Part shown: positions 21,452 through 62,670 of the stretch, piece after piece
Position numbering within the stretch: position 1 is the stretch's first letter
Layout of the letters: each line of letters opens with the position of its first letter
Source: Rhodanobacteraceae bacterium
Lineage (GTDB): Bacteria; Pseudomonadota; Gammaproteobacteria; Xanthomonadales; SZUA-5
Assembly: GCA_031409855.1 (NCBI GenBank)
Contig: JANNYA010000226.1
Location: 5,192 to 69,191, forward strand
DNA: 64,000 bases
Reading direction: 5' to 3'
Position numbers and translations under genes: made by a program
Notes under the pieces: generated by a model
Told to the model about the DNA's origin: nothing
What the model saw: the letters and a program-made list of their open reading frames with translations, nothing else
The model's database searches: none

Positions 21452-21477
21452 TCAGCCGTTAGCCCGTAGGACTAAGT

Positions 21478-24359: not shown

Positions 24360-24433
24360 ACAGACACAATGCGAAACACGCGCTGTATTCACTCAATAAC
24401 CTGTATTCACGTCGCAACCTGATCGAGAAGCCC

Positions 24434-25264
24434 ATGAGACTCCTTTTCCCGAATGCCGAACATGCGCAAATTGAACTTGGCAATGGTTTGCACACCATCG
24501 GCAGCGCTCCAGGCGCCAAAGTCAAGCTTTTTGCCCCAGGCGTATTGGCAAATCACTGCGAACTGCAGGTCAACGGCGAAACCGGGATGCTCTCGCCGGT
24601 GCCTGGTGCCGCATTAACGCTCAATGGCGCGCCAATCACCCGCAGCACTGAAGTTCGCGCTGGCGACGTCATTCAAGTAGCAGACGTGCGGGTGCGCATT
24701 GTCGCCGTTGATAAGGCCGGGGCATCTGCAGTGCCCATGGTGCAAAAGCGCCAGGAAGAAGCGGATGATGGCCGCACCCGCGTGCGCTCGGCGCTACCAA
24801 AATTCATGCTGCGCGGCGTTTCTGGTGCAACGTTTGGCAAAGTGTTCCCACTCACGGGGGTTACCGTGATTGGTCGCAACCCGGAATGCGACATTTCAAT
24901 TCCGACTGATGAAGTTTCACGACGCCACGCCGAGCTGCGCCCTAGTCAAGATGGCGTCATGGTTGAAGATTTGGGCTCGGCGAATGGCACTTTTGTCAAT
25001 GATCGCCGGGTAACGCGCGAGCTGCTTAAACATGGTGATGAGCTGCGCTTTGATCAATTACGGTTTCAACTCATTTCACCGGGGCGCGAGATGATGGGCG
25101 GCGCGGGTGCCAGCACAGGTTCCGCATCGTCGAACTCGTCGTCAAACTCAAATTCGGCTGTCCCTGCGTCTAACGGCGGTATCTCCACTACGGTATGGAT
25201 CGTGCTACTAGTGGTTGCATTGGCGCTGCTGCTCGGTGCGATGAAATTTGCCGGAGTGTTTTGA
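24434..25264 (+). CDS. Tandem FHA-domain protein with a C-terminal membrane anchor
   Basis: FHA2 is canonical: VIGRNPECDISIPTDEVSRRHAEL...LGSANGTFVN. The N-terminal FHA-like domain is degenerate: TIGSAP...LANHCEL...LTLNGAPI. A Ser/Asn-rich linker follows, then the TM helix TTVWIVLLVVALALLLGAMKFAGVF. Confidence 0.85.
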   Translation: MRLLFPNAEHAQIELGNGLHTIGSAPGAKVKLFAPGVLANHCELQVNGETGMLSPVPGAALTLNGAPITRSTEVRAGDVIQVADVRVRIVAVDKAGASAVPMVQKRQEEADDGRTRVRSALPKFMLRGVSGATFGKVFPLTGVTVIGRNPECDISIPTDEVSRRHAELRPSQDGVMVEDLGSANGTFVNDRRVTRELLKHGDELRFDQLRFQLISPGREMMGGAGASTGSASSNSSSNSNSAVPASNGGISTTVWIVLLVVALALLLGAMKFAGVF

Positions 25265-44650: not shown

Positions 44651-47600
44651 CTAGCGCGGTGCGGTTTGCCGTAAACGTTGCTGCAGCTCCGTTAGCAGTT
44701 CCCGCGCACGGGCGAGATCTTTTGCGGGCTCAAGCAATGTCTGCGCCTGTGCAAGCAATGCGCGTTTTTGCGCCGCATCACTTGCCAGATCAGCGGCAAG
44801 CATACGCAGCGCTGCGCGTTCCGTGCGCAAGCGCAAATCGCGCGCATCGGCGGTGGCAATCACACTTTCGCCAAATTCCAGCCAACGTTGGCTTTCGGCT
44901 CGATCATTTAACCTTAAATTGACTTCTGCCAAGCGCGCCGCAGCAGCAGCAAGCGAGGGATGGCGCTCGCCGACGCGCGTTTGGGCAAATGCCAGCGCTT
45001 GCGCCAGGGTGGTACGTGCCGCCGCTAGCTCCGTGTCGCTGTGCGCGTTGAGCAGCGCCAGCCGCCCTAGCCCAAGTAACGCGCCCGATTGCTGTGGGCT
45101 GTCGACGCCAAACATGGCCTTTTGTGCTGCCCAAGCCGATTGATAAAGCCGCTCGGCACGCGGCAAATCGCGTTCCAGCATTGCACACGCAGCGCGATTT
45201 GTCGCCAACGAGGCAAACAAAGGATGCGGTTGGGTGGCATCGAGCAGCTTGCGCAAAATGACTTCGGCGGCGTCATAGTGCGTGCGCGCGGCGCTAAATT
45301 GCCCTAGATCGCGCTCAACGTTGCCAAGATTCATCTGGGCGATGGCGAGTTCGGTGTGCAGCGGACCAAGCAGCTTTTGTCGCTTCTCTAATACCGCTAA
45401 AAAATGCAGGCGCGCGTCTTTGGCACGCCCCATTTGTAGCAGCGCAAAACCCAAGTTATTGTGTGCGGTAACAATATCGACTTCGCTGGCGCCGTTTTGC
45501 CGCAGCGCCAGAGTTTGCTCAAGTAATGGTGCGGCTTCGGCGTAGCGATTTTGGTCGTTATAAATGCTGGCAATAATGTTCATGGTTACCGCCCGTGCAA
45601 GCGGCGCCGCACGATTTTCTGCCTGCATCGCACGCACGCGTTCCAACACCGCAAGCGCTTCCTCAGGGCGCGCTAAATCGGCCAATATCCGCCCGCGCTC
45701 CAGCCCAAGTTCGCTGACTAGCTCCGCTTGAGTGCGATCCTGCTGCAAAATGCCGAGCGCTTTTTGTGCCTGATCCAGTGCGGCAAGTGAACGCTCAAGC
45801 TTACCCAGTGAGCGCAGGCTTTGGCTCATCTGCAACAGCAGCTTCGCTTGAACTGCAGGCGTTTCTGAAAGCAGCGCGGCTTTGTCAATGCCTAGCTCTA
45901 AAACTTCCTTCACCGTCGGGTCGCGGCCTTTGGCTTGGTTTGGATCTGCGGTGGCAAATAGGCTGCGCCAAAATTCGCTCAGCGCATTCGCGCTGCGCGC
46001 TTCGACATTGGCCCGATCCGTTTGCACCTGCAGCGCTTTTCCGCGCTCGTTCAAGCGCGCGGTTTGCCACACAGCAACCGCAAGAATCAATGACAGCAAG
46101 GCGGCAATCCAGCGCAAACGGCGCTTGCTGCGGGAATCCGCATCGGCACGCTCAAGCGCGGCGCGAGCGATCTTGCGCTCCTGCTCGGCCAAGGCTTGGG
46201 CTTGCATTAGTTCGCGCTCATTTCGCTCGCGCGCCATTTCTGCAGCAGCCTGCTCGTGCGCAAAGCTTGCGTCCAAAAATTGTGTCTCAGGCTCGGTCAA
46301 ACGTACCAAGCCACGCTCCCGTACCGGCAGATACTGTGCCAGCCGCGCACTGCTCGCTAAAAATCCAGCCGCGTCTTTGCCCTCAGCAGGTGCTTCTTGC
46401 CACTGCTTGGTCGCCTCGGCTAGCTGGCGTTGAAGGCGCAAATCCGCACGTGAGCCGGCCAGCCAATCTTGCAGCAGCGGCCAACTGCGCAGCAGCGCCT
46501 CGTGCGCTACTTCTACAGTCGCTAGCCTTTCGCCCTGGAATTCATTGGCGATCAGCGCACTGGCCTGATCGCGATCATGGCTCAGCAAACGCGCGTCGGA
46601 GTAAGCATTGATCGCTTTCTGTAGCGGCGTGGGGTCGGTGAACAGGGCATTGAGTTCATGCAAAAAAGCGCGTCTGCGGGTGTCTTCACGGCCTTCGCCA
46701 AGCGTGGTCAAACGCAGAAAAAGCTGTTGCGTGGCCAACTGCGCCGGTGCATCTAAAGCTTCAAACGTCGATTGCGCACGATTTGCCAGCGCGCCGCGAA
46801 TGCCGCCCATTTGGCGAAACGCGCTGAGCGTCAGCTCGAACCCAGCTCGGCGGCGAAAAAGCTCCGCGAGCGAGTACTGCAGCATCGGCAAAGCGCTCGC
46901 TTGCCCGCCCATGTCGGCCAAAATTGCCGCGACTAACCCTGGCTCAAAAACTAAGCCTGCACGTTTGGCGGGTCCAACGATCGCGCGCTCCAGCTCCTCC
47001 ATCGTCATCGCCGGAATCATTTCGGTACGCGCGCGCAACAACTCGGCTAAGTCCACATGCTGGAGCGGGCGATCAAGAAAATCTGCGCGCAGGGTAAACA
47101 CCGCGCGCAGCCTAGAATACGGCTCCAGCAGCGCGTTACAAAGCTGGGCAATAAAAAGTTCACGTTCACTGGTGTCTGTGCACAGCGTGAAAAGCTCTTC
47201 AAATTGATCAATCACCAACAGCAGCTCAGTTCCCGGTGCCAGGCTGCGATCTATCGCGCGGGAAAAACCGGTGCGTTCTTGCATCAAGGCATCAAGCCCA
47301 TCGGGCGCGATCGAGGCCACCCGCAGCAGGGCCGCCTGCAGCGCCTGCAAAGGCTGTGCGCCGGGCATGAAGGTGCTAATCAACCACCGATCCGCACCTT
47401 TGATCTGACCCGCACGCAGTGCCGGGATTAAGCCCGCGCGAACCACCGATGACTTTCCGCTGCCCGAGGCGCCGACGACAAAAAGCGCACGCGAAAGCCC
47501 CTGGGCGCGCGCCTCGACACTTTCGCGCAGGCGATCCAACAAGCACTCAATCATCGCTTCGCGGCCGAAAAATTGCCGCGCATTGCTTTCATCGAAGGCG

Positions 47601-48934
47601 GACAAACCCACGAAAGGGTTGTCCTGTTCGCTCAGCTCAGCTGAAATTGATGTGGTCAGCCCGGAATTTCCGGCATCATCGTGGGTGCCCATCCAGCCGG
47701 ATTTGGCCCCGCGCATTTCCGCTTCAAGCTCGATGACAAAACTGGTGGCGTCGGAAAAGCGATCCTCAGGGCTTTTTGCCAACGCTTTTTTCAACACTGC
47801 ATCCACGCGCTCTGACAGCTGCGGGGAAAACTCACGCACACTCGGTGGCGGCTGATTTAGATGTTGATAGATGATTGCCTCGCGCGTGCTGCCAGAAAAT
47901 GGCCGCCGCCCGGTAAACAGCTCAAACGCCAGCAGCCCGAGCGCGTAAATATCACTGCTCGCGTTGACCACAGTGCCGCGCAGCTGTTCGGGTGAGCAAT
48001 AGGCGATGGAACCTACAATCTCGCCAATTTGCGTGCGTCCACTATCGTTATCTAGTTTTTTCGCCACGCCAAAATCAGCCAGACAGCAATTACCTAGTTC
48101 ATCCAGCAAGACATTGGCAGGCTTGAGATCGCGATGCACGACACAAGCTTTGTGCGCGGTGCTCAGCGCCATCGCAACTTGACGCAAAATGGCCAGCGGA
48201 TTTGCCAGCGGCGTTGCTTTTTGCAGCGCTTGCGCGAGCGAGCCGCCCTTGAGCAGGCGCATCACCATAAAAGCAGCACCCGGTTCGCGCCAAAAATCAT
48301 AGAGCGGCACAATGCACGGGTGTTCAAGCTGGTCGACGAGCTCAGCTTCCGCTTCGAAGCGACAAATGAATTCGGGATCGTCGGCAAGCTCGGGATTAAT
48401 CACCTTAATCGCGACATCGCGCCCAACGCTGAGCTGCCTAGCGCGAAACACCGAACCAAAACCGCCTCGGCCGATTTCCTCGTCAAAGCGGTAGCCGCGT
48501 CGGGTCGTGCCGAGCAGGTGCACTTCGGCGTTCTGCGCTGGGCCAGCCAACGTGTGTTCTGCCAGGAAATCTGGTGCAACGTTGCCCGCAAAAGACTTGG
48601 CTGATGCCGGCTCGTGCTGGATCAGCGTAGTTGCACCGTCGTAGTCCGTGGCAAACCGTGCACTGTTGCGCGGCACCACGCGCGGAAAATGCCTTGGCGC
48701 ATCGGTTAAAAGCTGTTCATCTGCAAGCACATTCGCTAAGCGCGCCTGCACTTCTGGCTCAGGCTCAAGCTCAGCTTGCTCAAGCTTGCGCAACAAAAGC
48801 AAGACCACCTCAGCACGCTTGGCTAGCTCTTGCTGCGTAAGCCCCAACCGCGCACGTGCTGCGATCAAACGGCTAGCAAAACTCTCAGTGCCAGCTGGAT
48901 TAAAGGGGTGAATAGAGGTGGACAGTATCGACAT
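44651..48934 (-). CDS. HTH(XRE-like) - Hanks Ser/Thr kinase - STAND P-loop NTPase (nSTAND/NACHT-like) - TM - TPR multi-domain signalling protein
   Basis: The HTH is RLIAARARLGLTQQELAKRA (about 48719-48880). The kinase has IGRGGFGSVF, VAIKV, HRDLKPANVLL, DFGVAK and CSPEQ (about 47720-48496). The STAND N-terminal signature is NPFVGLSAFDESNARQFFGRE. Walker A is VVGASGSGKSS (47450-47473) and Walker B is LLLVIDQFEELF (47195-47224). The TM helix is RWIAALLSLILAVAVWQT (46061-46114). About 440 aa of TPR-like repeats follow to the C-terminus. Confidence 0.85.
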   Translation of the reverse strand: MSILSTSIHPFNPAGTESFASRLIAARARLGLTQQELAKRAEVVLLLLRKLEQAELEPEPEVQARLANVLADEQLLTDAPRHFPRVVPRNSARFATDYDGATTLIQHEPASAKSFAGNVAPDFLAEHTLAGPAQNAEVHLLGTTRRGYRFDEEIGRGGFGSVFRARQLSVGRDVAIKVINPELADDPEFICRFEAEAELVDQLEHPCIVPLYDFWREPGAAFMVMRLLKGGSLAQALQKATPLANPLAILRQVAMALSTAHKACVVHRDLKPANVLLDELGNCCLADFGVAKKLDNDSGRTQIGEIVGSIAYCSPEQLRGTVVNASSDIYALGLLAFELFTGRRPFSGSTREAIIYQHLNQPPPSVREFSPQLSERVDAVLKKALAKSPEDRFSDATSFVIELEAEMRGAKSGWMGTHDDAGNSGLTTSISAELSEQDNPFVGLSAFDESNARQFFGREAMIECLLDRLRESVEARAQGLSRALFVVGASGSGKSSVVRAGLIPALRAGQIKGADRWLISTFMPGAQPLQALQAALLRVASIAPDGLDALMQERTGFSRAIDRSLAPGTELLLVIDQFEELFTLCTDTSERELFIAQLCNALLEPYSRLRAVFTLRADFLDRPLQHVDLAELLRARTEMIPAMTMEELERAIVGPAKRAGLVFEPGLVAAILADMGGQASALPMLQYSLAELFRRRAGFELTLSAFRQMGGIRGALANRAQSTFEALDAPAQLATQQLFLRLTTLGEGREDTRRRAFLHELNALFTDPTPLQKAINAYSDARLLSHDRDQASALIANEFQGERLATVEVAHEALLRSWPLLQDWLAGSRADLRLQRQLAEATKQWQEAPAEGKDAAGFLASSARLAQYLPVRERGLVRLTEPETQFLDASFAHEQAAAEMARERNERELMQAQALAEQERKIARAALERADADSRSKRRLRWIAALLSLILAVAVWQTARLNERGKALQVQTDRANVEARSANALSEFWRSLFATADPNQAKGRDPTVKEVLELGIDKAALLSETPAVQAKLLLQMSQSLRSLGKLERSLAALDQAQKALGILQQDRTQAELVSELGLERGRILADLARPEEALAVLERVRAMQAENRAAPLARAVTMNIIASIYNDQNRYAEAAPLLEQTLALRQNGASEVDIVTAHNNLGFALLQMGRAKDARLHFLAVLEKRQKLLGPLHTELAIAQMNLGNVERDLGQFSAARTHYDAAEVILRKLLDATQPHPLFASLATNRAACAMLERDLPRAERLYQSAWAAQKAMFGVDSPQQSGALLGLGRLALLNAHSDTELAAARTTLAQALAFAQTRVGERHPSLAAAAARLAEVNLRLNDRAESQRWLEFGESVIATADARDLRLRTERAALRMLAADLASDAAQKRALLAQAQTLLEPAKDLARARELLTELQQRLRQTAPR

Positions 48935-48980: not shown

Positions 48981-51900
48981 TTACCGAACCCGCATTGCCG
49001 GATCCCCAAACAGCGTAATTGAATAATTCGATTCCATATGTTCCGGCGCATTCGTTGCTAAATCTGCCTTCGCCGCCTGCAATGACTCGCCTAAGGTATT
49101 AATTGCCACGCCGCCGCGATCATCAATACGGCCATCCTCGATCAGATCAAAAAAGCGTGTGCCCAGTGCCAAATGGCTGGCGTCTTCCGCCAAGCTGGTC
49201 GAGCCGATTACCGCTGCCGCCAGTTGATTGCTGCGCAGCATCAGCGCGTGGCTCATGGTGTCAAGATTCGGCATCACGAAATAGCTGTTCCAGCAGCCCC
49301 ACTGGCTGACGATGGCGGGCAAGCCGCTGCGCTGTAGGCTTGCTAACTGCGTGGTGTCGAGCAGATTTTGCGCAGCCCAGCGATTCGGGCTGGAGTGGCC
49401 GAGATAGTTGATCCAATCGCTGCCGCCTGCTAACGCGGCTTTGGCGGAAATTCGCGCATCGTTGATGCCAATCTCATCGCTCAAACCAAACTCCACGGTT
49501 TGATTTTGACGTAGATAACTCAGCAGTGCGCGGCTGTGCACGGCGAAATGTTCGCTAGCATTGGAGCCGCCCGCGCTGGCGAAAAATTTGGCTGCGGGTG
49601 TATCGCCGCGCTGCACGATTGAGCTGATAGCGCGGCGTAGCTCTTCCACCGTGCGCGCCGGAATGCGCCCGAGCGCGCGCTCAGGAATGCCATCGCTGTT
49701 GGCATCCGCAAATAGTGCATCGCTGGCGGCAAAACGCACGATCAGGCTAGCCACGCGATAAAAGGTAGGAAGATAACTTTGTGAGCCAGCGCCTAAATTG
49801 TCGTCATAGTCGTAACTATCACCACCGACCAGCAGCACGAACTTGGGATTGACTTGCGCTATTGCTTCGCGAATGGCTTGTGGGCTGCGTTGATGCGCGC
49901 TGCTTGCGGCATAGATCGCGTCGGTGCGCATGACTTTCACGCTGTAGCCTCGGCTTTGCTGTAGCGCGATTATTGGTGCCAATTCGGCCTCAAATAGCGG
50001 ATGCGTGACGATCAAATAATCTACCGGGGCAAAGTCGATTTGCGGCGCTGCGGCTGGCGCAAGCGCAGGCGTTTGCAGGTGCGCCAGATCACTGACATAC
50101 GCAGCGCTCACGCGAAGGTCGAGCGCGGCATTCGCAGCCACTTGATCGCGCTTAATCGTGCCATCAACTTGGCTCCAGATCGTGCTGGCGGTGTTGATGC
50201 CGGTGAGCGCAAAGCCGCTGACGGACTCAAAACTATTTCGCATCAGCGCATCGCCCGCGCTGTTGGCGCTGAAGCTGCCGAACGCCAATTCGCCGTCGCT
50301 CATGCTGGTGCTGCGCGTGTAGCTGACGCTAAAACCATCCAGCAGCACAACATCGGCGGCGTAGCCGGTATCGCCCAACACGCGCAGAGTCAGCGTGTTA
50401 TTTGCCTGCAGCTGGGCCGCGCTTAAGCTCAGCGTGATCGTTTGTAAGCTCAGGCCATCAAAACGGCGCTCGGCGATTGTTTCGCCGTTGAGCAAGAGCG
50501 CAACGCTGTGATCTGGCGTGTTGCCCGGGTAGTCAAGTCCGCCCCACAAATTCACTTTCAAATTCACCGCGCCGACAGTGCGCGCGGGCAAGCTAAAGCT
50601 GCGTGTCAATGCAACCGGTGCTGTGGTCGCGACTAGGCGTTGGTCAAACCAAGGGTCGTTACCCGGTGCGCTAAAAGTATATTCGCGATTCGGCGCTTGT
50701 TTGATTTCGGCACTCACGGTGCGCGCAAGCACAGCGCCATCAACAACCGCGCCAGAGCCCACATTTTGCGCCGCTGCCGCATCGTGCTTGATTTCATAAA
50801 CTCGTTCGCTGCCGTACAAGCTTGGCCGCGTGCTCGCAAGCCATTCCACGCTGCAGCCGGGGCCAAACGTTGCGCTTAAGCAATCGACAAAGCGCGGCAC
50901 AGGCACACTATTTTCTATGACCGCGATCTCGCCCGTATTTACGCCGCTAGCAAAACCCGCCGCGCTCATTTGCGCAAAGCTCACGCGTTGAATACCGGTT
51001 TTGCGCACGCTGGCAAGCACCGACGTCGCAGCCGTTCCGCGCGCACTGCGCACCGGCGTGGCGGCATTTGAGGCGCGAATTGCGGCCCAATTCAGCGGTT
51101 GATCGAGCGCTGGTGCGCCTACCGAGGCAGCGCCATTGGCGTCTGGTTTGATTTCTGGGTGAAAGCGCGAAACGCCTGTTAAATCAATATCTTCCAGACG
51201 AATTTCGGTGATGCCAGCGGCTTCAACAGTGCGCTGATAGGACTTCGCTGACATGCCATCGCCAGTACGATTGACAATCAAATCCTCATGCAGCGCGCGC
51301 CAGTCTTTCGTGCTATCCGCCCTGCCCCACAACCGATAACCCAAATGCCCGGCTTCGGTGGCGCTGCCAAATTGCACATTGAGCTGGGTGCCCGAACGGG
51401 TGGTGTTGACGAACGCTAGGCTGACGGGTGTGGTGGCAAACTCGCCACCAAAAATCGCAGTGCCGACAGTTTCTAGCGTGGTGTGACTGCGATCCGAACT
51501 TAGATCCGCATCTTCATCCACCCGCACCGTCATACTGACATTGGTGCCGCTCGCATTGCCCAAAGCGCAGCGCCGCAGCCAGCCGCCGTCATCCTCACCA
51601 CGGCTCATCAAGCCCGCAAAACCACGCAAATTCGCAGCCACCGTCGCGGTGCCCGCCGGGAACGCCAAATCAATGATCGAGCAGCTGCCGTTCACCACAT
51701 TGGCACTACTGATACTGGCACTGGTCGCAAGGCCAACCAAGCTGCCACCGGAAACCGCTAGCTGCGTGGAAACACCGGATTCAATCGCGATATAGCCAAT
51801 GGTTTCCGGGTTGAGCAGGCCGGGAATCGTGCCACCCGTATCGTCTGAGCTGGAACTTTCCAGCGCCGCTTCAAAACCGCTGCTGGACGCGTTGCGTATC

Positions 51901-54900
51901 GCCGTGGTTAGCCAAATTCTGGACACGCCGTTCAACGCCGGAATCCCGGGCAATGCGGGTACATTCAAGTTGCTGCCTTCATTCGGCAAACCCCAGCTTT
52001 GCAGCGTGCTCAACACCACCGGTGTCGCGCTAAAGTCAAAGCCCGCAAGTGTCGGGAAGTTCACGGTTTCCCAGCCCGCCGTTGGGTAACCCGCAAAACC
52101 GCCAAAGGTCGTGGCGCGTTGACTAGCTGAGCTGAGCACACTGCCAACTTTGACTAGCACGCCCGTGCCAGGAACATTAGGTGCAAGGCCGCGCATCGCC
52201 ACATCATTCGGTAAGCGATAGCTGCCCGGCAAAGCCGCCAACCAATGCACCGACATCGTGCCACCCGCACCCGTACAGCCGGCGCAACCTTGCGGCTCGA
52301 CTTGCGAGACATCGAAACTGCTGGCGTTGATATTGCTCAAGCGCACGGCTTTAGGATCGGCGTCGGTGTTATCCGGCTGCACAATCACAATTGGCGTGGC
52401 GCTAAAAGGCTGCGGGAAAAACACGCGCGTGGCGGCGTTTGCACCGGCACCGGTGGCGGGCAAAGTAATTGCGCCGACCGCCAATTTACGGCTCACCGGT
52501 GGCGTGCTGGTGCGTGCGATGAAATTGCCGATGGCGTACACCAAATCGGTGGCCTCACCCCCCATGTTAATGGTGGCGACTGTCGTCATGCCAAGTGTTT
52601 CCAGCACGGTCATGGTGCCATTGTTATTGCCGACGTAAACGCGACTACCGTTCGGGTGTATATCGACCCCTAGTGCCTTGCCGCCAGTGCTGCCGGTGGC
52701 AAGCACGCTTAAGCTCGCGGCGTCGATTTGCGACACGGACAACCCGTTGAAATTGCTGGCATAAATTCGCGTGCCATCGCTACTCACATTGACCGCAAGC
52801 GGTGTGTTGCCGATGCTGGCGCTGCCAACAATGGTATCGGTGGCGGTATTGAGCGCGGTCAAGCGCCCGGTGGCCTGACCATTGACGAAATACACACGGC
52901 TGCCATCTGGACTGATCGCCAAAGCATGACTGGTTGTTGCCACGTTCACTTGCGTGACCACGTTGCCTGGCAAGCTAACCACAGAAACATTCGTGGTGTT
53001 TGCGCTGCCGACATAGAGCTTGCTGCCATCGGGCGTGACGGCTAAACCCGTTGGTGCCGCGGCCACGCCAAACGTTGCCAGCACAGTATTGCTAGCGGTA
53101 TCAATCACCGACACTGTGCTGGCATTGCGATTGCTGACATACAGCCGCGTGCTGTTCGCCGATACCACGCCGCTCCAAGGCCCGGCACCCACGGCAATCG
53201 AAGTAATCAGGGTTTTCGTGGCGGTATTAATCACCTTCACGCTATTGCTTGCCTGATCAATGGCATAAGCGCGCAGGCCATTGGGCGCTACCGCCGCACC
53301 GATACCGGCACCACCGCTAATCGAATGGGTAATGCTGTTGGTGCCCAAATCCAGCACCGCCATTTGTCCGGTGTTATTGCGCGGCACATACGCAAAGGGG
53401 CCAACCAGCGTTTGCCCGCCCGGCGTGACGCTGTTGGAGGCTTGCGATGCGACACTATCGCCAACCGAATTGCGCGCGATCACAGTGCAACTCACCGGGA
53501 CGCCATTCGCCAGCCCTGTCACGGTGACCGGTGCTGTGTTGCTAAAGATGCTGGATGCGCCGCAGGTCACGGTATAGCCAATAATCGCGGCACCGCCGTT
53601 GTCGCTTGGTGCAATGAAACTCAAACGCACTTCGCCATTGCCAGCGGTGGCGGTGCCAATGTTTGGCGCACGCGGCACGATCGGTAAAACCGTGTGGATC
53701 ACCGCAGGCGAAACTGACGCACCGTGGCGTAAATCACCGCTGAAAGTCGCGGTTAAAGTTTTTGCCCCGACCGTCGTTGGCGTCAACAAGCATTGCCCAA
53801 GCCCGGTACCGTTCGTCATTGTACCTTCGCAGAAATCGGTGCCATCGCTAATGCGCATGCTGCCGGTGGTTGGTGCATTGCCACTGCTGGGGAGAACTTC
53901 GGCCTGAACTAAATACGCTTGGTCACGCGGCGAGGGGTTCGGTGCGTGGGTGATGATCGTGTTGGTGGTGGCAATCGGCGCGCTCAATGTGTATCGGTTC
54001 AAAAACACATCGCTCAGCGCGTCATTATTAGCGGCAATTAAATTGCTGCTATCGCTGCTAAACACGAGTTCACCGGTATCAGAAATGGCACGCGCGCTCA
54101 TTGTGGACAGGGCATTCGCTTGCGTTCCCAATTCGGTCATCGAGCCGCGCGCAATGGTGCCGGTCACCTGATCTTTCACGAACGCATCCGCGAGCCCATT
54201 GCTGTCGCCGCTGACCAAGTTGGTCATGGCGCAAACAAAGCCTAGGTTGCGCCCGTTGCTGCTGATTGAAGGCGCGCTGCAATCGCCGCCCAGCCCTTCG
54301 GCGCCGCCTGCATCGGTGCTGACGCGGGTGGTGGTATTGAGCGTTAAATCACGGACAAAAATATCGGTCACGCCGTTGCTGTCGCCAGCCACCAAATTGC
54401 TGGCGGCTGAGCTAAACGCGACAAAGCGGCCATCGTGGCTAAGTGCGGGGCTATCGCTTGCTGCGTTTGCCTGCGCCCCGAGCGTTGAGATACTGACGCG
54501 CACAAGTGTGCCGTCGCTTAGGGTTTTTACATAGATATCGCGCACGCCGTTGCTATCGCTGGCGATCAAGTTGGTCGATTCAGAAACGAACGCCACGCGG
54601 CTGGCGTCATCGCTGATTTGCGCGCTCAGGTTATTGCCATCGCCCAATCCGCCAGCAGCGTTGGTGCTGATGATTGTGGTGGCGTTGGTGCTGCGGTTTT
54701 TCAGGAACACATCTTCTCTCAGATTGTTGTCACCCGCGACCAAAGTGCTATCGGCGCTGTGGAAAATGACTAGATTGCCATCGCTGCTGATCGAGGTGCC
54801 TGCGCGCAACGCCGTACTGCTGATCTGTGTGCCCGCGCTGCTGGAGCTGACTAGATCAATCGTGCCAGTCACGCGCTGCTTGACGAACACATCGAATGCG

Positions 54901-57900
54901 CCGTTGCCATCGCTGGCCACCAAATTGCTGGCGGTACTGCGAAAGACCACCGACAGGCCATCGCCGCTAACGGTCGGGAAATCGCTAGCGGCATTGGCCG
55001 CCACCGCGCTCGCGCTTTGACTGATGCGGATGTTGCTGCCATCGTTTCGGTCGGTCAGGAAAACATCGCTGGACAGATTGGTATCGCCATTGATGAGCGT
55101 GCTGGACGCTGACGAATAACTAACAAAGCGGCCATCGCGGCTAATGCTGGCATCCATACTTGCGCCCTCGCTGCGTGCGCCAGGATTGGCGGCACTGGCA
55201 CGCACGCTGGCAACGCTCAAGCGATCCCGCACAAATATATCCACCTGCGCATTGCTGTCATTTGCCACCAAATCAGTCGCCGCAGACTGATAGCTAATGA
55301 ATCTTCCATCGGCGCTGATTGCGGGGAATTCGCTCAGTCCACTCAAGGTTTGCGTGCCATTCGCCAACACATTGATGCGTGTGGTCGCATTGGTTTGCCG
55401 ATCTTTGAGAAAGATATCGCTTAAAACGTTGGTATCACCTGGGACCAGATTATTTGCACTGCTGTAGAAAGCAATATAGCGCGCATCGCTGCTCATGGAT
55501 GCCAGCTGCGAGCCTGCCACACCATACACACCGGTGCTATTAGTGCTCACCATCGCAATCGCGCCGGTATTCATATCTTTCAAAAAAACGTCGTAGTTGT
55601 TGTTGACGTCATTGACTACCAAGCGCCGATTCAGCGAACTAAACGCGACATAGCGGCCATCGGCACTGATGGCGGGGCGGCCAAAACTCGGATCTGTGGG
55701 GTTTGCCCCGCCAACACCAGCGGCGTCGACGCTAACAATTTGGATCGCGCGGGTGAGTCGATCTTTGCGAAAAATGTCCACGGTATCGTTGCTGTCGCCA
55801 ACGTAAAAATTGAACGCCTGCGACTGGAACGCGACATAGCGGCCATCGGCACTCAGCACCGGATTGAAACTGCGAAAGTCGCCTAAAACGTCCGCGCTGT
55901 TGCTGCTGACGATATCGAGCGTGTTGCCCAGCAAGTCACGCACATAAATGTCATTGTGGATGCTGGTGTCACTGGGTAAAAGTTGCCCACCGGTTTGAAA
56001 CGCGACAAAGCGGCCGTCGGCGCTTAAACTTGGTGCCAACTGGTCAAAACCTGCACCCGTATTTGGCGTGCTGTCTTGGTTGCCGTTGGACTTCAGCGTG
56101 GCGCGCACGATGCTGCCGTCGCTTAAGTCTTTAACAAAAACATCGACCACATTATTGGTATCGCCAGACACCAAATTGCTAGCTAACGAACTAAATGCAA
56201 CAAAACGGCCATTCGCGCTTATCACAGGCTCAGCGCTGGCACCGTCGCTTTGCAGGCCGCCAGCGCTGGTACTAATTCGACGCACTAGACCGCTGCGCTG
56301 ATCGCGAATGAAAATATCCCGCAGCGCATTGCTATCATTAAGCACCAAGTCGCTGGCGCTGCTCGCAAAGACTACAAAGCGGCCATCCCCACTTAAGCTG
56401 AGCGCGTTGTTCACCGATGCACCGTTGCTTTCGCTGTAGCCCAATCGCGGGTTTGAAATAAGCACTGGGTAGCTTTCCGGCAAAACCGTTTGCACTACGG
56501 GTATTGAGGTACGCGGCGCATAATTTGCATCGCCCGGCCAGTTTGCGATCAAATTGCGCGCACCTGACGTGCTGGCGCTCCAGAAACATTGATTCGCAGG
56601 CAGCACGATCAGGCATTGATCGACGCCATCGCTGACCGTGATCGTGCCGGTTGGCGCTGGCGTGCTTAGGAAACTTGACACGTCCAAATCCACCGTAATG
56701 TGCACGCCTTGGCGCAAGCGGCTGGTAGCAGGCATATTGCGGACAATGGCAAAGTTCGCGACCGCTTGCGTGGCGGACACCTGACTGGCTGCCCAAATGC
56801 CGCTGGCGCTGTAGCTGGCAGTCAAGCTGCGCGTGCCAGCACGCAATGGCTGCAGCGTGCAGCTGCCTACTTCAGCTGCAGTCCCAACTAAAGCGACGCT
56901 ACAGCGCGCGGTTAATGGATCACTGGCTGGGCCGTCAAGAACCTGCACCGCGCCGCTTGGGAAATCGCCCAAATCCGGCGTTTCCCGCACGTTGAGTTGC
57001 ACCACAACCGGTGCCAGCGGCAGCGAAGGATTCGGCAAATTGCTGCTGATGCTGGTGGTTGTAGCGCGGCCGGCATTGACCAGATGACTGGTGCTCGCCA
57101 TTGCCGCCGGATGCGCGCCATCGCCGGAATAACACAGCTGCAGCGTCTTGTTGCCGACGCTGTTAAAGCTGATGGCGCAACTATTGCCGGGCAAAGTCAC
57201 CGTGCACTGATGCGCCGGATCAATCGGCGCACTGGCGCAATCGACAGCCTCTTTTACTGTGACGGTGCCAGTGGCAGAGGCGGCTGGATTTCCCGCTGGC
57301 GGCGCTAAAGTCCAACTCAAGGTGATCGGTGCACCATTGACCGACGGATCAGGTGTGTCATTGATGGCGCTGAACTCCACCGCGCCAGTGCTGATGTGGG
57401 TTTCGCTGTCGCTACCGCCATCAAAACCACCGTAGCCCAAGTAATCTGCCACCAGAGTTTTATTGCCGGTGCGCAACGGCGTCAAAATACATTCGCCGAT
57501 TTCGCCCGGTGTACCCAAAAGTGTCATCGTACAAAAAGCTGTTGTTGCCTCGTGGCGCGGGCCATCGCGCACTTCTACTAAACCTTTTGGCAAGGCCGCA
57601 ATCGGGTTGCCCGCGGTTTTGACCACCTGCGCGCGCACCGTGATCGGCGCTAGCAAACTCGAAGAATCGGGCAAGTCCGAAATGATGGTGGTGACGGTGT
57701 TTGGGCCGGGGCTCATGTACCAATTGACCGCCGGGTTAAAACGTATTCGCGCTTCAAACAGCGCCCAGTGATTTGGCGTTGCGGTGGATAACCTAAAGCT
57801 GCCCAAACTCGTCGTTGCAAATCCAGTGGAGTTATCAAAGCGCACCGCGATGGAGCAGGCAACGCCCTGTGGATTGACCACTCGGCCACGATATACCAAT

Positions 57901-58715
57901 AGCGTGCGGTAATCATCCGCTGTGCCCTGCACGCCATCTAGCCCTGCCCGGGTGAAGCGCAAAGTGGCCAAATCATCATGTTGCAGATGCCGTTGCGCCT
58001 CATCGGCGCCTGCGCCCTGCTGCATAACCGCCTCAGCATTCGCAAAGCCCAGCGCTGCCAGCACTTGCTGGCCGGCATTGGCGGCGTACAGGTGGCCTGC
58101 GGGCAAAAAGCTCAAGCTGCGCGCATACGTCGACTCATCAATAATGCTTGGCAGCAGGCCAGGATTATTGACACCCTTGCCATACCAGTGCAGGTTTTGA
58201 TCGTCACCGCGAACATCGTCACTGGAGCCGTGTAGGCCATCCACACCTGCGCCTTGGTCAAACACATTGTTCGGGCCATTCGCGCTTTTCGTGCCGTCGT
58301 TCAACGGGCTTGGCAAACCCGATTCACTGGCGTGATTCGGATGCGCCAAGCCTTGCCCGTGCAGCATTTCGTGCAGCAGCACCGATTCGAAATCATACTG
58401 GCCGCTTGGCACGTCGGTTTGCGCGCTGAGGGCTTTGGTTTGCTCAGCCAATGATCGAAAGCGATTAATGGTGGCAATCGCTTTGAGCAATGCTGGCTCT
58501 GCTGACTCAGCCAAAGCCTGATTCGCGCCTATATCCAAACACACGCGAATCGAGCTTAGCTCGCCACCGTTGCCGTCAAAGTTGTGCGGATGCGTGCGAA
58601 TATCGGGAAAGCTTTCGTCAGCCACCACATAAGCACCCGGGCTGCAAATACTCGGCAGCGCTAAGGCGACGCTCAGCAGGCTCAGTTTACAGAACTGACT
58701 GATTACGCGGCTCAT
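48981..58715 (-). CDS. Giant (3244 aa) secreted multidomain protein: N-terminal metzincin-like Zn-protease, Ig-like modules, 14 PD40/TolB-like blades, FN3, YVTN beta-propeller, lectin-like modules, C-terminal peptidase C25 (gingipain-like) domain
   Basis: A signal peptide is present. The Zn motif is HEMLHGQGLAH (58341-58373). There are five Ig-like modules, each with a conserved Cys pair. Fourteen ~57-aa repeats of the type SADGRFVAFSSLASNLVSGDTNNVVDVFVKDL span about 53990-56410. An FN3 domain (GEVRLSFIAPSDNGGAAIIGYTVTC) follows. YVTN repeats (LYVSNRNASTVSVIDTASNTVLATFGVAAAPTGLAVTPDGSKLYV) span about 52470-53500. The C25-like domain (about 48981-50030) has VDYLIVTHPLF, VLLVGGDSYDYDD, GRIPART, the catalytic His in INYLGHSSP (about 49395-49397) and Cys in SQWGCWNSYF (49293-49295). 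Confidence 0.85.
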   Translation of the reverse strand: MSRVISQFCKLSLLSVALALPSICSPGAYVVADESFPDIRTHPHNFDGNGGELSSIRVCLDIGANQALAESAEPALLKAIATINRFRSLAEQTKALSAQTDVPSGQYDFESVLLHEMLHGQGLAHPNHASESGLPSPLNDGTKSANGPNNVFDQGAGVDGLHGSSDDVRGDDQNLHWYGKGVNNPGLLPSIIDESTYARSLSFLPAGHLYAANAGQQVLAALGFANAEAVMQQGAGADEAQRHLQHDDLATLRFTRAGLDGVQGTADDYRTLLVYRGRVVNPQGVACSIAVRFDNSTGFATTSLGSFRLSTATPNHWALFEARIRFNPAVNWYMSPGPNTVTTIISDLPDSSSLLAPITVRAQVVKTAGNPIAALPKGLVEVRDGPRHEATTAFCTMTLLGTPGEIGECILTPLRTGNKTLVADYLGYGGFDGGSDSETHISTGAVEFSAINDTPDPSVNGAPITLSWTLAPPAGNPAASATGTVTVKEAVDCASAPIDPAHQCTVTLPGNSCAISFNSVGNKTLQLCYSGDGAHPAAMASTSHLVNAGRATTTSISSNLPNPSLPLAPVVVQLNVRETPDLGDFPSGAVQVLDGPASDPLTARCSVALVGTAAEVGSCTLQPLRAGTRSLTASYSASGIWAASQVSATQAVANFAIVRNMPATSRLRQGVHITVDLDVSSFLSTPAPTGTITVSDGVDQCLIVLPANQCFWSASTSGARNLIANWPGDANYAPRTSIPVVQTVLPESYPVLISNPRLGYSESNGASVNNALSLSGDGRFVVFASSASDLVLNDSNALRDIFIRDQRSGLVRRISTSAGGLQSDGASAEPVISANGRFVAFSSLASNLVSGDTNNVVDVFVKDLSDGSIVRATLKSNGNQDSTPNTGAGFDQLAPSLSADGRFVAFQTGGQLLPSDTSIHNDIYVRDLLGNTLDIVSSNSADVLGDFRSFNPVLSADGRYVAFQSQAFNFYVGDSNDTVDIFRKDRLTRAIQIVSVDAAGVGGANPTDPSFGRPAISADGRYVAFSSLNRRLVVNDVNNNYDVFLKDMNTGAIAMVSTNSTGVYGVAGSQLASMSSDARYIAFYSSANNLVPGDTNVLSDIFLKDRQTNATTRINVLANGTQTLSGLSEFPAISADGRFISYQSAATDLVANDSNAQVDIFVRDRLSVASVRASAANPGARSEGASMDASISRDGRFVSYSSASSTLINGDTNLSSDVFLTDRNDGSNIRISQSASAVAANAASDFPTVSGDGLSVVFRSTASNLVASDGNGAFDVFVKQRVTGTIDLVSSSSAGTQISSTALRAGTSISSDGNLVIFHSADSTLVAGDNNLREDVFLKNRSTNATTIISTNAAGGLGDGNNLSAQISDDASRVAFVSESTNLIASDSNGVRDIYVKTLSDGTLVRVSISTLGAQANAASDSPALSHDGRFVAFSSAASNLVAGDSNGVTDIFVRDLTLNTTTRVSTDAGGAEGLGGDCSAPSISSNGRNLGFVCAMTNLVSGDSNGLADAFVKDQVTGTIARGSMTELGTQANALSTMSARAISDTGELVFSSDSSNLIAANNDALSDVFLNRYTLSAPIATTNTIITHAPNPSPRDQAYLVQAEVLPSSGNAPTTGSMRISDGTDFCEGTMTNGTGLGQCLLTPTTVGAKTLTATFSGDLRHGASVSPAVIHTVLPIVPRAPNIGTATAGNGEVRLSFIAPSDNGGAAIIGYTVTCGASSIFSNTAPVTVTGLANGVPVSCTVIARNSVGDSVASQASNSVTPGGQTLVGPFAYVPRNNTGQMAVLDLGTNSITHSISGGAGIGAAVAPNGLRAYAIDQASNSVKVINTATKTLITSIAVGAGPWSGVVSANSTRLYVSNRNASTVSVIDTASNTVLATFGVAAAPTGLAVTPDGSKLYVGSANTTNVSVVSLPGNVVTQVNVATTSHALAISPDGSRVYFVNGQATGRLTALNTATDTIVGSASIGNTPLAVNVSSDGTRIYASNFNGLSVSQIDAASLSVLATGSTGGKALGVDIHPNGSRVYVGNNNGTMTVLETLGMTTVATINMGGEATDLVYAIGNFIARTSTPPVSRKLAVGAITLPATGAGANAATRVFFPQPFSATPIVIVQPDNTDADPKAVRLSNINASSFDVSQVEPQGCAGCTGAGGTMSVHWLAALPGSYRLPNDVAMRGLAPNVPGTGVLVKVGSVLSSASQRATTFGGFAGYPTAGWETVNFPTLAGFDFSATPVVLSTLQSWGLPNEGSNLNVPALPGIPALNGVSRIWLTTAIRNASSSGFEAALESSSSDDTGGTIPGLLNPETIGYIAIESGVSTQLAVSGGSLVGLATSASISSANVVNGSCSIIDLAFPAGTATVAANLRGFAGLMSRGEDDGGWLRRCALGNASGTNVSMTVRVDEDADLSSDRSHTTLETVGTAIFGGEFATTPVSLAFVNTTRSGTQLNVQFGSATEAGHLGYRLWGRADSTKDWRALHEDLIVNRTGDGMSAKSYQRTVEAAGITEIRLEDIDLTGVSRFHPEIKPDANGAASVGAPALDQPLNWAAIRASNAATPVRSARGTAATSVLASVRKTGIQRVSFAQMSAAGFASGVNTGEIAVIENSVPVPRFVDCLSATFGPGCSVEWLASTRPSLYGSERVYEIKHDAAAAQNVGSGAVVDGAVLARTVSAEIKQAPNREYTFSAPGNDPWFDQRLVATTAPVALTRSFSLPARTVGAVNLKVNLWGGLDYPGNTPDHSVALLLNGETIAERRFDGLSLQTITLSLSAAQLQANNTLTLRVLGDTGYAADVVLLDGFSVSYTRSTSMSDGELAFGSFSANSAGDALMRNSFESVSGFALTGINTASTIWSQVDGTIKRDQVAANAALDLRVSAAYVSDLAHLQTPALAPAAAPQIDFAPVDYLIVTHPLFEAELAPIIALQQSRGYSVKVMRTDAIYAASSAHQRSPQAIREAIAQVNPKFVLLVGGDSYDYDDNLGAGSQSYLPTFYRVASLIVRFAASDALFADANSDGIPERALGRIPARTVEELRRAISSIVQRGDTPAAKFFASAGGSNASEHFAVHSRALLSYLRQNQTVEFGLSDEIGINDARISAKAALAGGSDWINYLGHSSPNRWAAQNLLDTTQLASLQRSGLPAIVSQWGCWNSYFVMPNLDTMSHALMLRSNQLAAAVIGSTSLAEDASHLALGTRFFDLIEDGRIDDRGGVAINTLGESLQAAKADLATNAPEHMESNYSITLFGDPAMRVR

Positions 58716-59260
58716 GGCGCACTCACTTTCACAGCGTCAGCCCGCGTTTCTAAGGCCAGCAGCGCCTGCACCATCACACTCATCGCCTGCAAATCGGCGT
58801 TATCGGGCTGAACTTCGGCACCGGCGAGCACGCCGAATGCACTCTGTTTGATCGCATCCGCGCCAACGCCCGCTTCCAACACATACAAATCGGCGTCCTG
58901 CACCTGGAAAACCTCAACCCGCGCCACACTGCTGCGCGCATTTGCCGATGCCATTAACGCCGCGCGATCAATATGCCGCACCCGCTCCGGCGTGATGACT
59001 TGCCGCAACCCCGTCAGTTCGGTAGCCGTTAGCGTGACGCGAAAATCCCCGGCCGCGCGATAAAAGCTGGGCCGATGCAGCGCCACGCAGCCATTATCGT
59101 AAACCTGCAGCGTCAGCGTGCGATCCGCAACGCTGACTTGCGCTGCGGTAACACTCAACGCCAAAGTCGGCGCACCGATGGGCGTGCACGCGGCGAACGC
59201 CGACTTATACAAACCGAGCAAAATAATTGCGGATAGACAGCGGAACAGTGTTTGCGACAT
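58712..59260 (-). CDS. Hypothetical small secreted protein / probable lipoprotein; first gene of the giant-protein operon
   Basis: The signal peptide with Cys is MSQTLFRCLSAIILLGLYKSAFAAC. There is an ATGA overlap with the giant gene start (58712-58715). I recognised no family. Confidence 0.6.
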   Translation of the reverse strand: MSQTLFRCLSAIILLGLYKSAFAACTPIGAPTLALSVTAAQVSVADRTLTLQVYDNGCVALHRPSFYRAAGDFRVTLTATELTGLRQVITPERVRHIDRAALMASANARSSVARVEVFQVQDADLYVLEAGVGADAIKQSAFGVLAGAEVQPDNADLQAMSVMVQALLALETRADAVKVSAP

Positions 59261-59435: not shown

Positions 59436-59687
59436 TCAATTCCCCAAGACTCCACGGGCGCGGCCGACTGCGGCGGTTCTGCTGAATGGTTGTAACAAGC
59501 CAGTTTCAGTCAACAGTTTTAGCTAGCGATGCAGAGAGCCAACAGAAACATCGGTCAAACGGGCGATCGCGCGCAGATAAAAATTTTCGTCAGGACGCAG
59601 CAGCAGCAATGCGAGTATCTTGCGGCGGTAGGCACCGAACAAAATCTCAATGAGCTGTGGGACTTCGGCAGTTTCAATTGATCTCAT
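59436..59687 (-). pseudogene. Small winged-helix (ArsR/MarR-like) transcriptional regulator interrupted by an in-frame TAG
   Basis: Hand translation from ATG 59687-59685 gives MRSIETAEVPQLIEILFGAYRRKILALLLLRPDENFYLRAIARLTDVSVGSLHR*LKLLTETGLLQPFSRTAAVGRARGVLGN*. The TAG (59523-59525) sits where wHTH proteins of this type normally have E or Q (..RELKRL.E.GLL..). The homology-like pattern continues in the same frame after the stop. Confidence 0.5.
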
Positions 59688-59757
59688 AATGAGAATAATC
59701 GTAGCAAAAATGAGAACAATTAGAGAGTGCGTGCAACTTTCCGCTTAACCACAATCT

Positions 59758-61050
59758 TCATTGCGCCAAACGATAGTCCACCTGCACCGATCGCGCTGGC
59801 CCGGCATTGGTGCTGGGCAAACTTAAGATTGCACGTGCTGGTGGTGATTCGCTGATCACTTTGCCTGCCCGCAAAACATGGGTGCGGGTGGCGCGTAGCC
59901 GAATCGCTTCAATCGCATTCGCAGCGTCCAAAATCACCAGATCCGCATTGCAGCCTGGCCTGATGCCGTAATTTTGCAGGCCTAAAATGCGCGCAGGGTT
60001 TTCGGTTACTGCTGCAAAACACTGCCGCATCGCCGCTTGCCCGGTCATTTGCGCCACGTGCAGGCCCATGTGCGCCACTTCCAGCATATCGCCCGAGCCT
60101 AGGCTATACCAAGGATCCATCGCGCAGTCTTGCCCAAACGCCACTTCAATCCCCATCGCTAACATCTCGGGCACACGCGTCATGCCACGCCGTTTTGGAT
60201 AGCTATCGTGGCGGCCTTGCAGCGTGATATTGATCAATGGATTGGCAATTGCGGCAACACCGGCTTCTTTGATTAAGGGCAGCAATTTGCTGACGTAATA
60301 GTTGTCCATCGAATGCATGGATGTTAGGTGCGAACCGGTCACCCTGCCCTGCATGCCTAAGCGCTGCGCCTGATATGCCAAAGTTTCGATGTGTCTGGAC
60401 ATGGGATCGTCGGACTCATCACAGTGCATATCAACGCGCAAACCGCGCTCGGCGGCGAATTCGCACAAGAGCCGAACCGATTCCGCACCTTCGGCACTGG
60501 TACGTTCAAAATGGGGAATGCCGCCAACTACATCCACGCCCAAGCTGATCGCTCGCGCCAAGTTTTCGAACGCGGTTTTGCTGCGCAAGATGCCGTCTTG
60601 CGGAAATGCGACTAGCTGTAAGTCCAGATACGGCGCGACCTGCTTTTTGACCTGCAGCAGCGCTTCGACAGCAAGCAGGCGGTCGTCACAAATATCCACA
60701 TGCGAGCGGATCGCTAACAAACCGCGCGCGACTGCCCAATCGCAATAATGCAGGGCGCGCGCAATCAGCGCGTCCTGGGTCAGCGATGGTTTCAGCTCGC
60801 CCCACAGCGCAATGCCTTCCAGCAAAGTGCCGGATTGATTCACACGCGGCAAACCGTAGCTTAAGGTCGCGTCCATATGAAAATGCGCGTCGACAAACGG
60901 TGGCGTAACCAAATTGCCAGCGGCGTCAATCTCAGCCAGCGCGGAGGCTTGAATCGCGGGCTCGACGGCAATAATGCGGCCATCCTGAATCGCAATATCA
61001 ACGCCCTCGGTGCCATCAGGCAAGTTGGCATTACGAATGATTAAATCCAT
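59758..61050 (-). CDS. codA: Cytosine deaminase-family amidohydrolase (CodA-like)
   Basis: Strongly colinear with E. coli CodA as recalled: PPFVDAHFHMD, NQSGTLLEGI, LQLVAFPQDGIL, VVGGIPHFE, VDMHCDESDD, TGSHLTSMHS, ANPLINITLQGRHDSYPKRRGMTRV, DPWYSLGSGDMLEVAHMGLHV. The HDD segment reads QDC here. Confidence 0.8.
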   Translation of the reverse strand: MDLIIRNANLPDGTEGVDIAIQDGRIIAVEPAIQASALAEIDAAGNLVTPPFVDAHFHMDATLSYGLPRVNQSGTLLEGIALWGELKPSLTQDALIARALHYCDWAVARGLLAIRSHVDICDDRLLAVEALLQVKKQVAPYLDLQLVAFPQDGILRSKTAFENLARAISLGVDVVGGIPHFERTSAEGAESVRLLCEFAAERGLRVDMHCDESDDPMSRHIETLAYQAQRLGMQGRVTGSHLTSMHSMDNYYVSKLLPLIKEAGVAAIANPLINITLQGRHDSYPKRRGMTRVPEMLAMGIEVAFGQDCAMDPWYSLGSGDMLEVAHMGLHVAQMTGQAAMRQCFAAVTENPARILGLQNYGIRPGCNADLVILDAANAIEAIRLRATRTHVLRAGKVISESPPARAILSLPSTNAGPARSVQVDYRLAQ

Positions 61051-61053
61051 CAG

Positions 61054-62307: not shown

Positions 62308-62670
62308 TGGACTTTGGCTCAGCTGATGGGGTGGGTAGATGTTTGATCTTAATCGCAAAACACACCGAATGAGCGCATTGAAACTTCGCCTGATTTGATG
62401 GCTAGACTTTGCATGCAGTTGAAATAACTGTGGAGTTTGCCCTCCCCCGGAATCAGAGGGTTTTGCCCTGAGTACGGGCACGCTATCGTTTGCCAACATC
62501 TATGCTCACGGAGCAAATTCAACCCGCAACTTGAAGAGGGCGAGCTACGCGACATCCCGATTACCGGAGCCTGCATGACGTTCATTGATGACATTTTCTG
62601 CAATGGCTATGAGGGTGCGCCATAGCGGTGTCTACCCTTTGGCCTACAACGCCCCATTTCGCTATTAATC

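Follow-up and report, generated by a model that had tools for sequence, protein, structure and literature searches.

The 64,000-nucleotide (nt) window analyzed here, positions 5,192 to 69,191 of contig JANNYA010000226.1 from a Rhodanobacteraceae bacterium (assembly GCA_031409855.1), carries on its reverse strand a giant gene encoding a predicted secreted protein with a peptidase domain at either end. The giant open reading frame (ORF; 48981..58715, (-)) encodes 3244 amino acids (aa) plus a stop codon, and is preceded by a partner ORF of 182 aa (58712..59260, (-)) whose stop overlaps the giant ATG by 4 nt (ATGA). The giant protein opens with a zinc peptidase (zincin) domain and closes with a cysteine peptidase domain of family C25, and its homology relationships show it, at the level of sequence, to have been fused from two cassettes, each of them also found separately. 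As delimited by these comparisons, the first cassette is the small partner ORF together with the zincin domain, four immunoglobulin (Ig)-like modules, 14 PD40 blades, a further Ig-like module and an FN3-like module; the second is a C25 unit of ~818-1170 aa resembling PorU of Porphyromonas gingivalis.

The giant protein is the product of one genuine gene of a Rhodanobacteraceae/Lysobacterales-type gammaproteobacterium of soil or water. It is read in a single frame with no stop inside, and its GC content is even along the whole gene. Seven clusters of full-length orthologues (P0002-P0008; 3247-3313 aa), drawn from different assemblies and projects, align to it with 60-67% identity over 99-100% coverage, and locus L011 provides a further case of the same architecture, which brings the independent assemblies with a full-length orthologue to at least eight. 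Because all of these keep that architecture, the assembly chimera or frameshift that the first-pass annotation had listed as a concern is excluded. Among named records, those nearest to it belong to Rhodanobacteraceae and Lysobacterales metagenome-assembled genomes (MAGs), and database names for the orthologues go no further than 'C25 family cysteine peptidase' or 'YVTN family beta-propeller protein'.

Conservation along the protein is highest at its two protease ends: mean column identity among the orthologues is 0.83 in the C25 domain and 0.79 in the zincin domain, against 0.50-0.72 in the segments between them. Both catalytic centers, whose conservation the first-pass annotation had left to be checked, are kept in the orthologues and in distant relatives alike. 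The protein also contains 25 Cys after the signal peptide, all of them kept in 8/8 orthologues; 24 form 12 sequence-adjacent pairs, and the catalytic C3141 is the sole unpaired conserved Cys. Indirectly, this pattern argues strongly for a disulfide-bonded protein located outside the cytoplasm, whose one free thiol is that of the active site, and it fits the earlier proposal of an oxidizing compartment, which had been based on the Cys pairs of the Ig-like modules; each of those pairs is itself conserved in 8/8 orthologues.

Evidence for the two-cassette composition comes from 76 C25 loci obtained in a scan of species-representative genomes, in which the relatives are Lysobacterales. In essentially every full-length ORF at these loci (~750-3500 aa) the C25 domain ends a few residues from the stop codon. 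Homology to distant relatives (Arenicella, Alcanivoracaceae, Acidobacteriota, Chloroflexota) begins at window residue ~2427, and the shortest C25 proteins consist of a signal peptide and the 818-aa unit (e.g. L047, L055). Close paralogues (52-67% identity) mostly align from residue ~2066-2078, just past the YVTN propeller, and L024 is a stand-alone copy of the resulting ~1170-aa cassette. The heads of the close paralogues are varied, comprising FG-GAP x13, Peptidase_S8, Reprolysin M12B, Sortilin/BNR, DUF5122 propellers with TIG and Calx-beta, and a proprotein-convertase P-domain. Conversely, residues 1-1765 are homologous (44-55% identity) to ~25 giant proteins of 2146-2550 aa that lack a C25 domain. 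In one protein of 2411 aa (P0032) the zincin half is combined with a C25 unit that shares only 31% identity with that of the window protein; a unit so divergent points to an independent fusion, and hence to the same two protease types having been combined at least twice. The first-pass annotation regarded two unrelated proteases on one polypeptide as unusual. The architecture is real, but it is not a one-off: the C25 unit serves as a C-terminal cassette on ~90 ORFs with varied heads, and the presence of S8 and M12B peptidases among these heads indicates that the two-protease design is recurrent rather than unique to the window gene.

Tandem sets of two or three PorU-like C25 genes of differing lengths occur at eight loci (L023, L028, L032, L036, L040, L045, L046 and L053), and one MAG (JANOQN01) holds four dispersed C25 paralogues (L012, L013, L014, L016). 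From these multiple copies, the C25 family appears to expand by cassette shuffling. Within the window, a 968-aa Sortilin/BNR protein is encoded two genes downstream of the giant gene (41625-44531, (-)); the same domain type heads the C25 paralogue L017, which hints at local exchange of heads and cassettes.

The zincin domain occupies residues 27-335 (57711..58637, (-)), has no propeptide and was delimited on family alignments A1 and A2. Its zinc motif, HEMLHGQGLAH, spans residues 115-125 (H115, E116, H119, G122, H125; 58341..58373, (-)). Of 83 family members, 82 retain each of the ligands H115, H119 and H125, 81 retain E116 and all have G122; HExxHxxGxxH is intact in all 34 giants from the first search and lies near residue 111-118 (173 in P0005). 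The candidate Met-turn residue, M231, is Met in the window protein and in 52/83 members, with Ala in 24, Val in 3 and Leu in 2. C59 and C287 are each Cys in ~70/83 members, which suggests a disulfide. Two acidic motifs, DGxxGSxDDxRxDD (residues 159-172) and DGxxGxxDDY (258-269), are invariant or nearly so among the 83 members and exceed the zinc ligands in conservation, with D159, D166, D167, R169, D171 and D172 present in every member; such a pattern could reflect calcium binding or a part in substrate binding.

The family to which this domain belongs has no dedicated Pfam model and comprises ~500-700 clusters: an exhaustive HMMER search returned 493 representatives at E<=1e-30 and 718 at E<=1e-10. 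In 221/223 family proteins the domain lies at the N-terminus. A profile search also recovered stand-alone zincins of ~340-600 aa in Halomonas, Myxococcota and Bacteroidota, some of them with PEP-CTERM or T9SS (type IX secretion system) tails, and these tails argue that the family is extracytoplasmic.

Whether the domain is a metzincin, as the first-pass annotation had proposed in calling it metzincin-like, was addressed by profile and structure comparison. The window domain has no significant Pfam match, scoring 14.4 bits against M10 (PF00413) with a threshold of 24. Among its relatives, 37/39 match PF00413 at E<=0.01 and 5/8 of those tested pass the threshold (25-31 bits), only over profile positions ~102-129. 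Against the PDB, single-sequence and first profile searches gave only chance matches to major histocompatibility complex (MHC) and antibody fragment (Fab) chains; a deeper profile gave 56 weak matches, all of them metzincins (52 matrix metalloproteinase (MMP) sequences, three karilysin and one ADAM 33) and all limited to the zinc helix. An AlphaFold2 (AF2) model built on a 39-sequence alignment reached a predicted local distance difference test (pLDDT) score of 89.7 and a predicted TM-score (pTM) of 0.87, and an earlier model from 15 close sequences (pLDDT 51) was discarded. A Foldseek search of the PDB with the retained model found nothing with E<1; its top three include meprin alpha (E 1.8) and karilysin (E 4.5), with TM <=0.15. 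The extended zinc motif thus upholds the metzincin-like label, whereas the fold comparison and the M10 score do not; the candidate Met-turn Met is present in the window protein and variable in the family. On the predicted structure, we regard the N-terminal domain as a zincin with a metzincin-type extended motif whose membership in the metzincins is not established at fold level.

The C25 catalytic domain spans residues 2891-3244 (48984..50045, (-)) as delimited by Pfam and by alignments to RgpB and PorU, and ends in GDPAMRVR followed directly by the stop codon. It matches Pfam Peptidase_C25 (PF01364) over residues 2900-3243 with 158.5 bits against a threshold of 23, covering profile positions 1-374 of 374 (E 3.6e-46), and all 13 diverse C25 units match the same family. 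The catalytic residues are His3107 in YLGHSS (49395-49397, (-)) and Cys3141 in QWGCWN (49293-49295, (-)), aligned to H211 and C244 of RgpB, respectively, with NYLGHSS set against NYTGHGS and WGCWN against ACVNG. The His, the Cys, and the GRxP and GDP motifs are invariant in 13 C25 relatives, some of them only 25% identical, and the dyad is also invariant in alignment A4; by residue conservation, the domain is catalytically intact. The RgpB residue Asp163, which we take to be its S1 residue, has no evident Asp at the aligned window position, in a region of low-confidence alignment. The remaining layout motifs named in the first-pass annotation (VDYLIVTHP, VLLVGGDSYDYDD and GRIPART) were all found, and the positions it gave for HEMLHGQGLAH and the Cys of QWGCWN proved exact.

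The region before the catalytic domain (residues 2427-2890; 50046..51437, (-)) is collinear with the N-terminal region of PorU, and with it the 818-aa unit begins. The profile built on these final 818 aa finds PorU (6ZA2) with E 1.6e-28, profile positions 132-535 corresponding to PorU 35-461 (independent E-value 1.9e-07) and 597-820 to PorU 546-785 (8.3e-18); its match to RgpB (E 1.7e-14) covers the catalytic core only. The NCBIfam PorU model NF033707 gives 101.3 bits against a cutoff of 420, a partial match over profile positions 161-516 of 1095. The description of this end as gingipain-like consequently holds for the family and the intact dyad, but PorU is a closer relative than the gingipains. 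The propeptide-like region proposed in front of the catalytic domain likewise exists, but it is collinear with the pre-catalytic region of PorU and has no Propeptide_C25 match. No match to Por_Secre_tail was obtained, and the giant protein ends with its C25 domain.

The translationally coupled partner ORF had escaped the first-pass annotation. It encodes a signal peptide, two Cys (C25 and C58) and an HRP motif. Hidden Markov model (HMM) searches located a homologue with the same 4-nt overlap at 11/12 of the zincin loci examined and at no C25-only locus. These homologues (167-214 aa) are present at every orthologue locus, beside a C25-less Pseudolysobacter paralogue and with P0032, and they also precede stand-alone zincins in Halomonas denitrificans and in another MAG; the partner is absent at one distant PEP-CTERM member of the zincin family. 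The HRP motif is conserved, and both Cys are missing from the Halomonas copy. The partner family comprises 48 clusters, 'hypothetical' wherever named, and the partner had no relative in Pfam, NCBIfam, PADLOC or the PDB. Maintained across these loci, the 4-nt-overlap arrangement suggests a dedicated partner of the zincin, and since the zincin has no propeptide, we infer from gene linkage that the partner serves it in the periplasm as a dedicated inhibitor or chaperone. The intergenic region preceding the partner gene holds a short ORF (~59520-59690, (-)) resembling the N-terminal part of a winged-helix (helix-turn-helix, HTH) regulator and cut by a stop (MRSIETAEVPQLIEILFGAYRRKILALLLL...SLHR*), which may be a pseudogene remnant.

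The C25-less giants share a further feature at their C-termini. All 25 of them (among P0009-P0034) end in ...[IVL]F[RG]x[GS][FL][EQDN] (relaxed pattern), at the C-terminus or ~10 residues from it; the strict pattern is found at or near the C-terminus in at least 59/225 zincin-family proteins and constitutes the very last residues in 32. A PEP-CTERM or T9SS tail takes this place in other family members, so the motif may be an undescribed sorting or processing signal. In C25-bearing proteins a look-alike of these F-x-x-G-F-E ends sits between the pre-domain and the catalytic core, in a loop missing in distant units; in the window protein it is LMRNSFES (in DALMRNSFES), residues 2824-2831 (50223..50246, (-)). 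The C25-less giants, tested for the pre-C25 region, do not share it.

Between signal peptide and C25 unit, most of the modules described in the first-pass annotation were recovered. The Sec-type signal peptide (residues 1-26; 58638..58715, (-)) was read from the sequence and its cleavage site is inferred; the G-A-Y predicted to begin the mature protein is conserved throughout the zincin family, with G27 in 70/83 members. Five Ig-like modules with conserved Cys pairs had been proposed, and Pfam identified five Big_3_5 modules: four in residues 336-765 (56421..57710, (-)), with a conserved Cys pair in each, and a fifth (53676..53960, (-)) matching over residues 1589-1676. The 14 PD40/TolB-type blades (residues 766-1585; 53961..56420, (-)) were confirmed by Pfam PD40 (PF07676; 51.8 bits against 20.9), with a counted period of ~58 aa, and are enough for two 7-bladed propellers. 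The FN3 domain is less secure: the FN3-like module (53421..53675, (-)) matches PF00041 over residues 1692-1761 at 21.5 bits, below the cutoff of 25, and relatives and paralogues carry a precomputed PF00041 match. The YVTN/YncE-type beta-propeller at residues ~1766-2060 (52536..53420, (-)) lies at the cassette junction; it was recognized by a Pfam YncE/lactonase-type propeller model and, above threshold, by the NCBIfam YVTN repeat TIGR02276 (70.2 bits against 27.85, residues 1774-2055). Three modules with an H-type-lectin-like pattern had also been proposed, and here the assignment was not confirmed. Only the first copy (2096-2137) is borderline, with 23.4 bits against the PF09458 threshold of 24; it lies in the first part of the ~1170-aa C-terminal cassette (residues 2066-2426; 51438..52520, (-)), which otherwise has no assigned domain; HMMs derived from the orthologues' modules did not return copies two and three at E<=1, and no internal repeat signal was found. 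Since HMMs of the supposed modules fail to recognize each other, the three-lectin reading is unsupported. The view of the protein as a single giant Sec-signal product with two unrelated peptidase domains was borne out, as was the lack of a secretion signal beyond Sec: Pfam and NCBIfam gave no autotransporter, RTX or T9SS-tail model in the giant protein.

The gene 46 nt downstream of the giant gene (44651-48934, (-)) encodes a 1427-aa protein with HTH, Ser/Thr kinase, nSTAND1 and tetratricopeptide repeat (TPR) domains. It was considered as part of the system and rejected, as it is not conserved beside the orthologues. Orthologue loci (L001-L004, L009) have pairs of extracytoplasmic function (ECF) sigma and kinase-TPR genes, or a Trans_reg_C-kinase-TPR gene, within a few kb; such kinase neighbors could represent a regulatory link or merely the high kinase density of these genomes, and PADLOC returned only generic kinase-domain matches among the neighbors. 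A promoter and terminator scan was uninformative, with fewer sites than in shuffled sequences and none in the gap that separates the giant gene from the kinase gene downstream of it. The same strand carries amidohydrolase (430 aa) and Peptidase_M20 (481 aa) genes directly upstream (59758-62499, (-)), and a Peptidase_S9 gene lies at 1273-3585; this context lends weak support to a role in peptide catabolism. At some distance, four genes at 15341-25264 (+) encode an autotransporter with DUF11 repeats (1338 aa), a Sel1-repeat protein with caspase C14 (690 aa), a kinase with FGE-sulfatase (887 aa) and an FHA-domain protein, in what looks like a signaling or conflict-type cluster.

The reading we favor, and hold to be probable by a modest degree, is that of a multi-catalytic protease that is exported and whose propellers and Ig modules offer binding surfaces; the partner would guard or fold the zincin, and autoprocessing is likely. 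The protein would be exported through Sec and act as an extracellular or cell-surface multi-catalytic protease, its Ig modules and three propellers providing spacers and substrate-binding or gating surfaces. The co-translated partner would safeguard or fold the propeptide-less zincin in the periplasm, as inhibitor or chaperone, and the polyprotein would probably be cut into fragments by its own proteases, by analogy with gingipain polyproteins. Several observations weigh against this account. Near the giant gene no secretion system is encoded that could carry so large a protein across the outer membrane. The partner is tied to the zincin by gene linkage and matched no known inhibitor family or structure; a partner-zincin fusion was sought and none was found, the one candidate (P0064) looking like a miscalled start. 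Mechanistic details of metzincins may not transfer to the zincin domain, as it has no solved fold neighbor and the Met is replaced in 29/83 members. Lastly, a role in sorting or processing would also account for the strict C-terminal place of the C25 cassette behind unrelated heads.

This last point leads to the reading of the PorU-like cassette as a cis-acting C-terminal processing or attachment module instead of a digestive protease, the main rival, which we consider unlikely. By analogy with PorU acting on T9SS cargo, the enzyme would here be built into the cargo, cleaving itself after export, possibly near the F-x-D/N-G-F-E linker, and then releasing the passenger or transpeptidating it onto a surface acceptor. 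PorU is the best solved relative and is collinear over both the pre-domain and the catalytic domain, and in the T9SS it acts as C-terminal signal peptidase and as a transpeptidase of sortase type (PMC11285876). The position of the cassette at the extreme C-terminus of unrelated heads, its several paralogues or tandem copies per genome, and the F-[RG]-x-G-F-[EQDN]-type ends of the 25 C25-less giants, matched by the internal look-alike at 2824 in C25-bearing proteins, point the same way. The many passenger-less relatives, made up of signal peptide and 818-aa unit (L047, L055), instead argue that the C25 unit is an enzyme in its own right; the NF033707 score of 101 bits is far under its cutoff, the internal motif lies in a loop that distant units lack, and no acceptor or partner genes were identified. 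The protein also has no T9SS C-terminal domain (CTD) and belongs to a lineage outside the Bacteroidota, to which T9SS is confined (PMC5445135, PMC11285876). A bolder combination, to which we give little credence, would make the C25 cassette a T9SS-independent, cargo-embedded C-terminal sorting system of Gammaproteobacteria, Acidobacteriota and Chloroflexota and have the partner found a new inhibitor or chaperone family; cleavage at F-x-[DN]-G-F-E could then free the passenger or anchor it covalently, and stand-alone units could act in trans on ...F-R-x-G-F-E-COOH proteins. Less probable still is a periplasmic or envelope-retained scaffold devoted to binding, with one or both protease domains regulatory or pseudo-enzymatic. 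Pfam and NCBIfam found no outer-membrane export signal, Ser/Thr-kinase-TPR and ECF-sigma genes adjoin several orthologues, and both periplasmic TolB and gated peptidases typically contain PD40 repeats. Against such a scaffold, strong purifying selection has kept every catalytic residue, cell-surface sorting tails occur within the family, and these genomes commonly hold kinase genes, of which the window has another. An assembly or frameshift artefact joining several genes was raised only for the extreme ORF length and has a negligible probability: nothing was found in its favor, and the shared architecture and length in seven orthologue clusters and L011, the uniform GC content and the uninterrupted frame all contradict it.

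Our literature search found no paper linking C25 or gingipain-like peptidases to Lysobacterales or describing this architecture, the zincin family or the partner. A zincin family of ~500-700 clusters, with no dedicated Pfam model or solved structural neighbor, comes with its own co-translated small secreted partner. PorU-type C25 units are widespread outside the Bacteroidota, always C-terminal and on varied passengers, which raises the question of a PorU-like role without T9SS. Lysobacterales-type bacteria, for their part, appear to assemble giant multi-protease proteins by cassette shuffling, a process that bears on how environmental bacteria degrade protein or attack other cells. Nothing so far suggests a categorically new mechanism.

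Among known systems, the coupling of a small signal-peptide protein to an adjoining exported hydrolase through a 4-nt overlap resembles secreted protease/inhibitor or foldase pairs. Serralysin/AprA with Inh/AprI and lipase with Lif each combine a secreted hydrolase with a dedicated periplasmic inhibitor or foldase; the likeness is one of analogy, and the window partner has no sequence similarity to Inh. With matrixin- and karilysin-type metzincins (MEROPS M10) the zincin domain shares HExxHxxGxxH on a predicted helix, and M231 together with the DD-bearing helix after it is reminiscent of the Met-turn and helix C. It differs in that the matches span only ~25 residues around the zinc motif, in the ~105 residues with an invariant acidic cluster that separate the third His from the Met, in the replacement of that Met in 29/83 members and in the lack of a propeptide. 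For the last 818 aa the best solved relative is PorU (Porphyromonas gingivalis, PDB 6ZA2, MEROPS C25), with GH and GDP motifs common to both. The window protein has no counterpart of PorU residues ~786-1158, which include the T9SS CTD (residues 1054-1158; PMC11285876), and its unit sits behind a 2400-aa passenger in a gammaproteobacterial lineage. Compared with the gingipains RgpB, RgpA and Kgp, the domain order is reversed, the catalytic domain of the window protein coming last, and there is neither a Propeptide_C25 match nor a CTD; what the two share is a C25 core with its His-Cys dyad within a large polyprotein that joins a protease to Ig- or adhesin-like modules. Gingipains mature by autoprocessing, which makes autoprocessing a plausible analogy for the giant protein.

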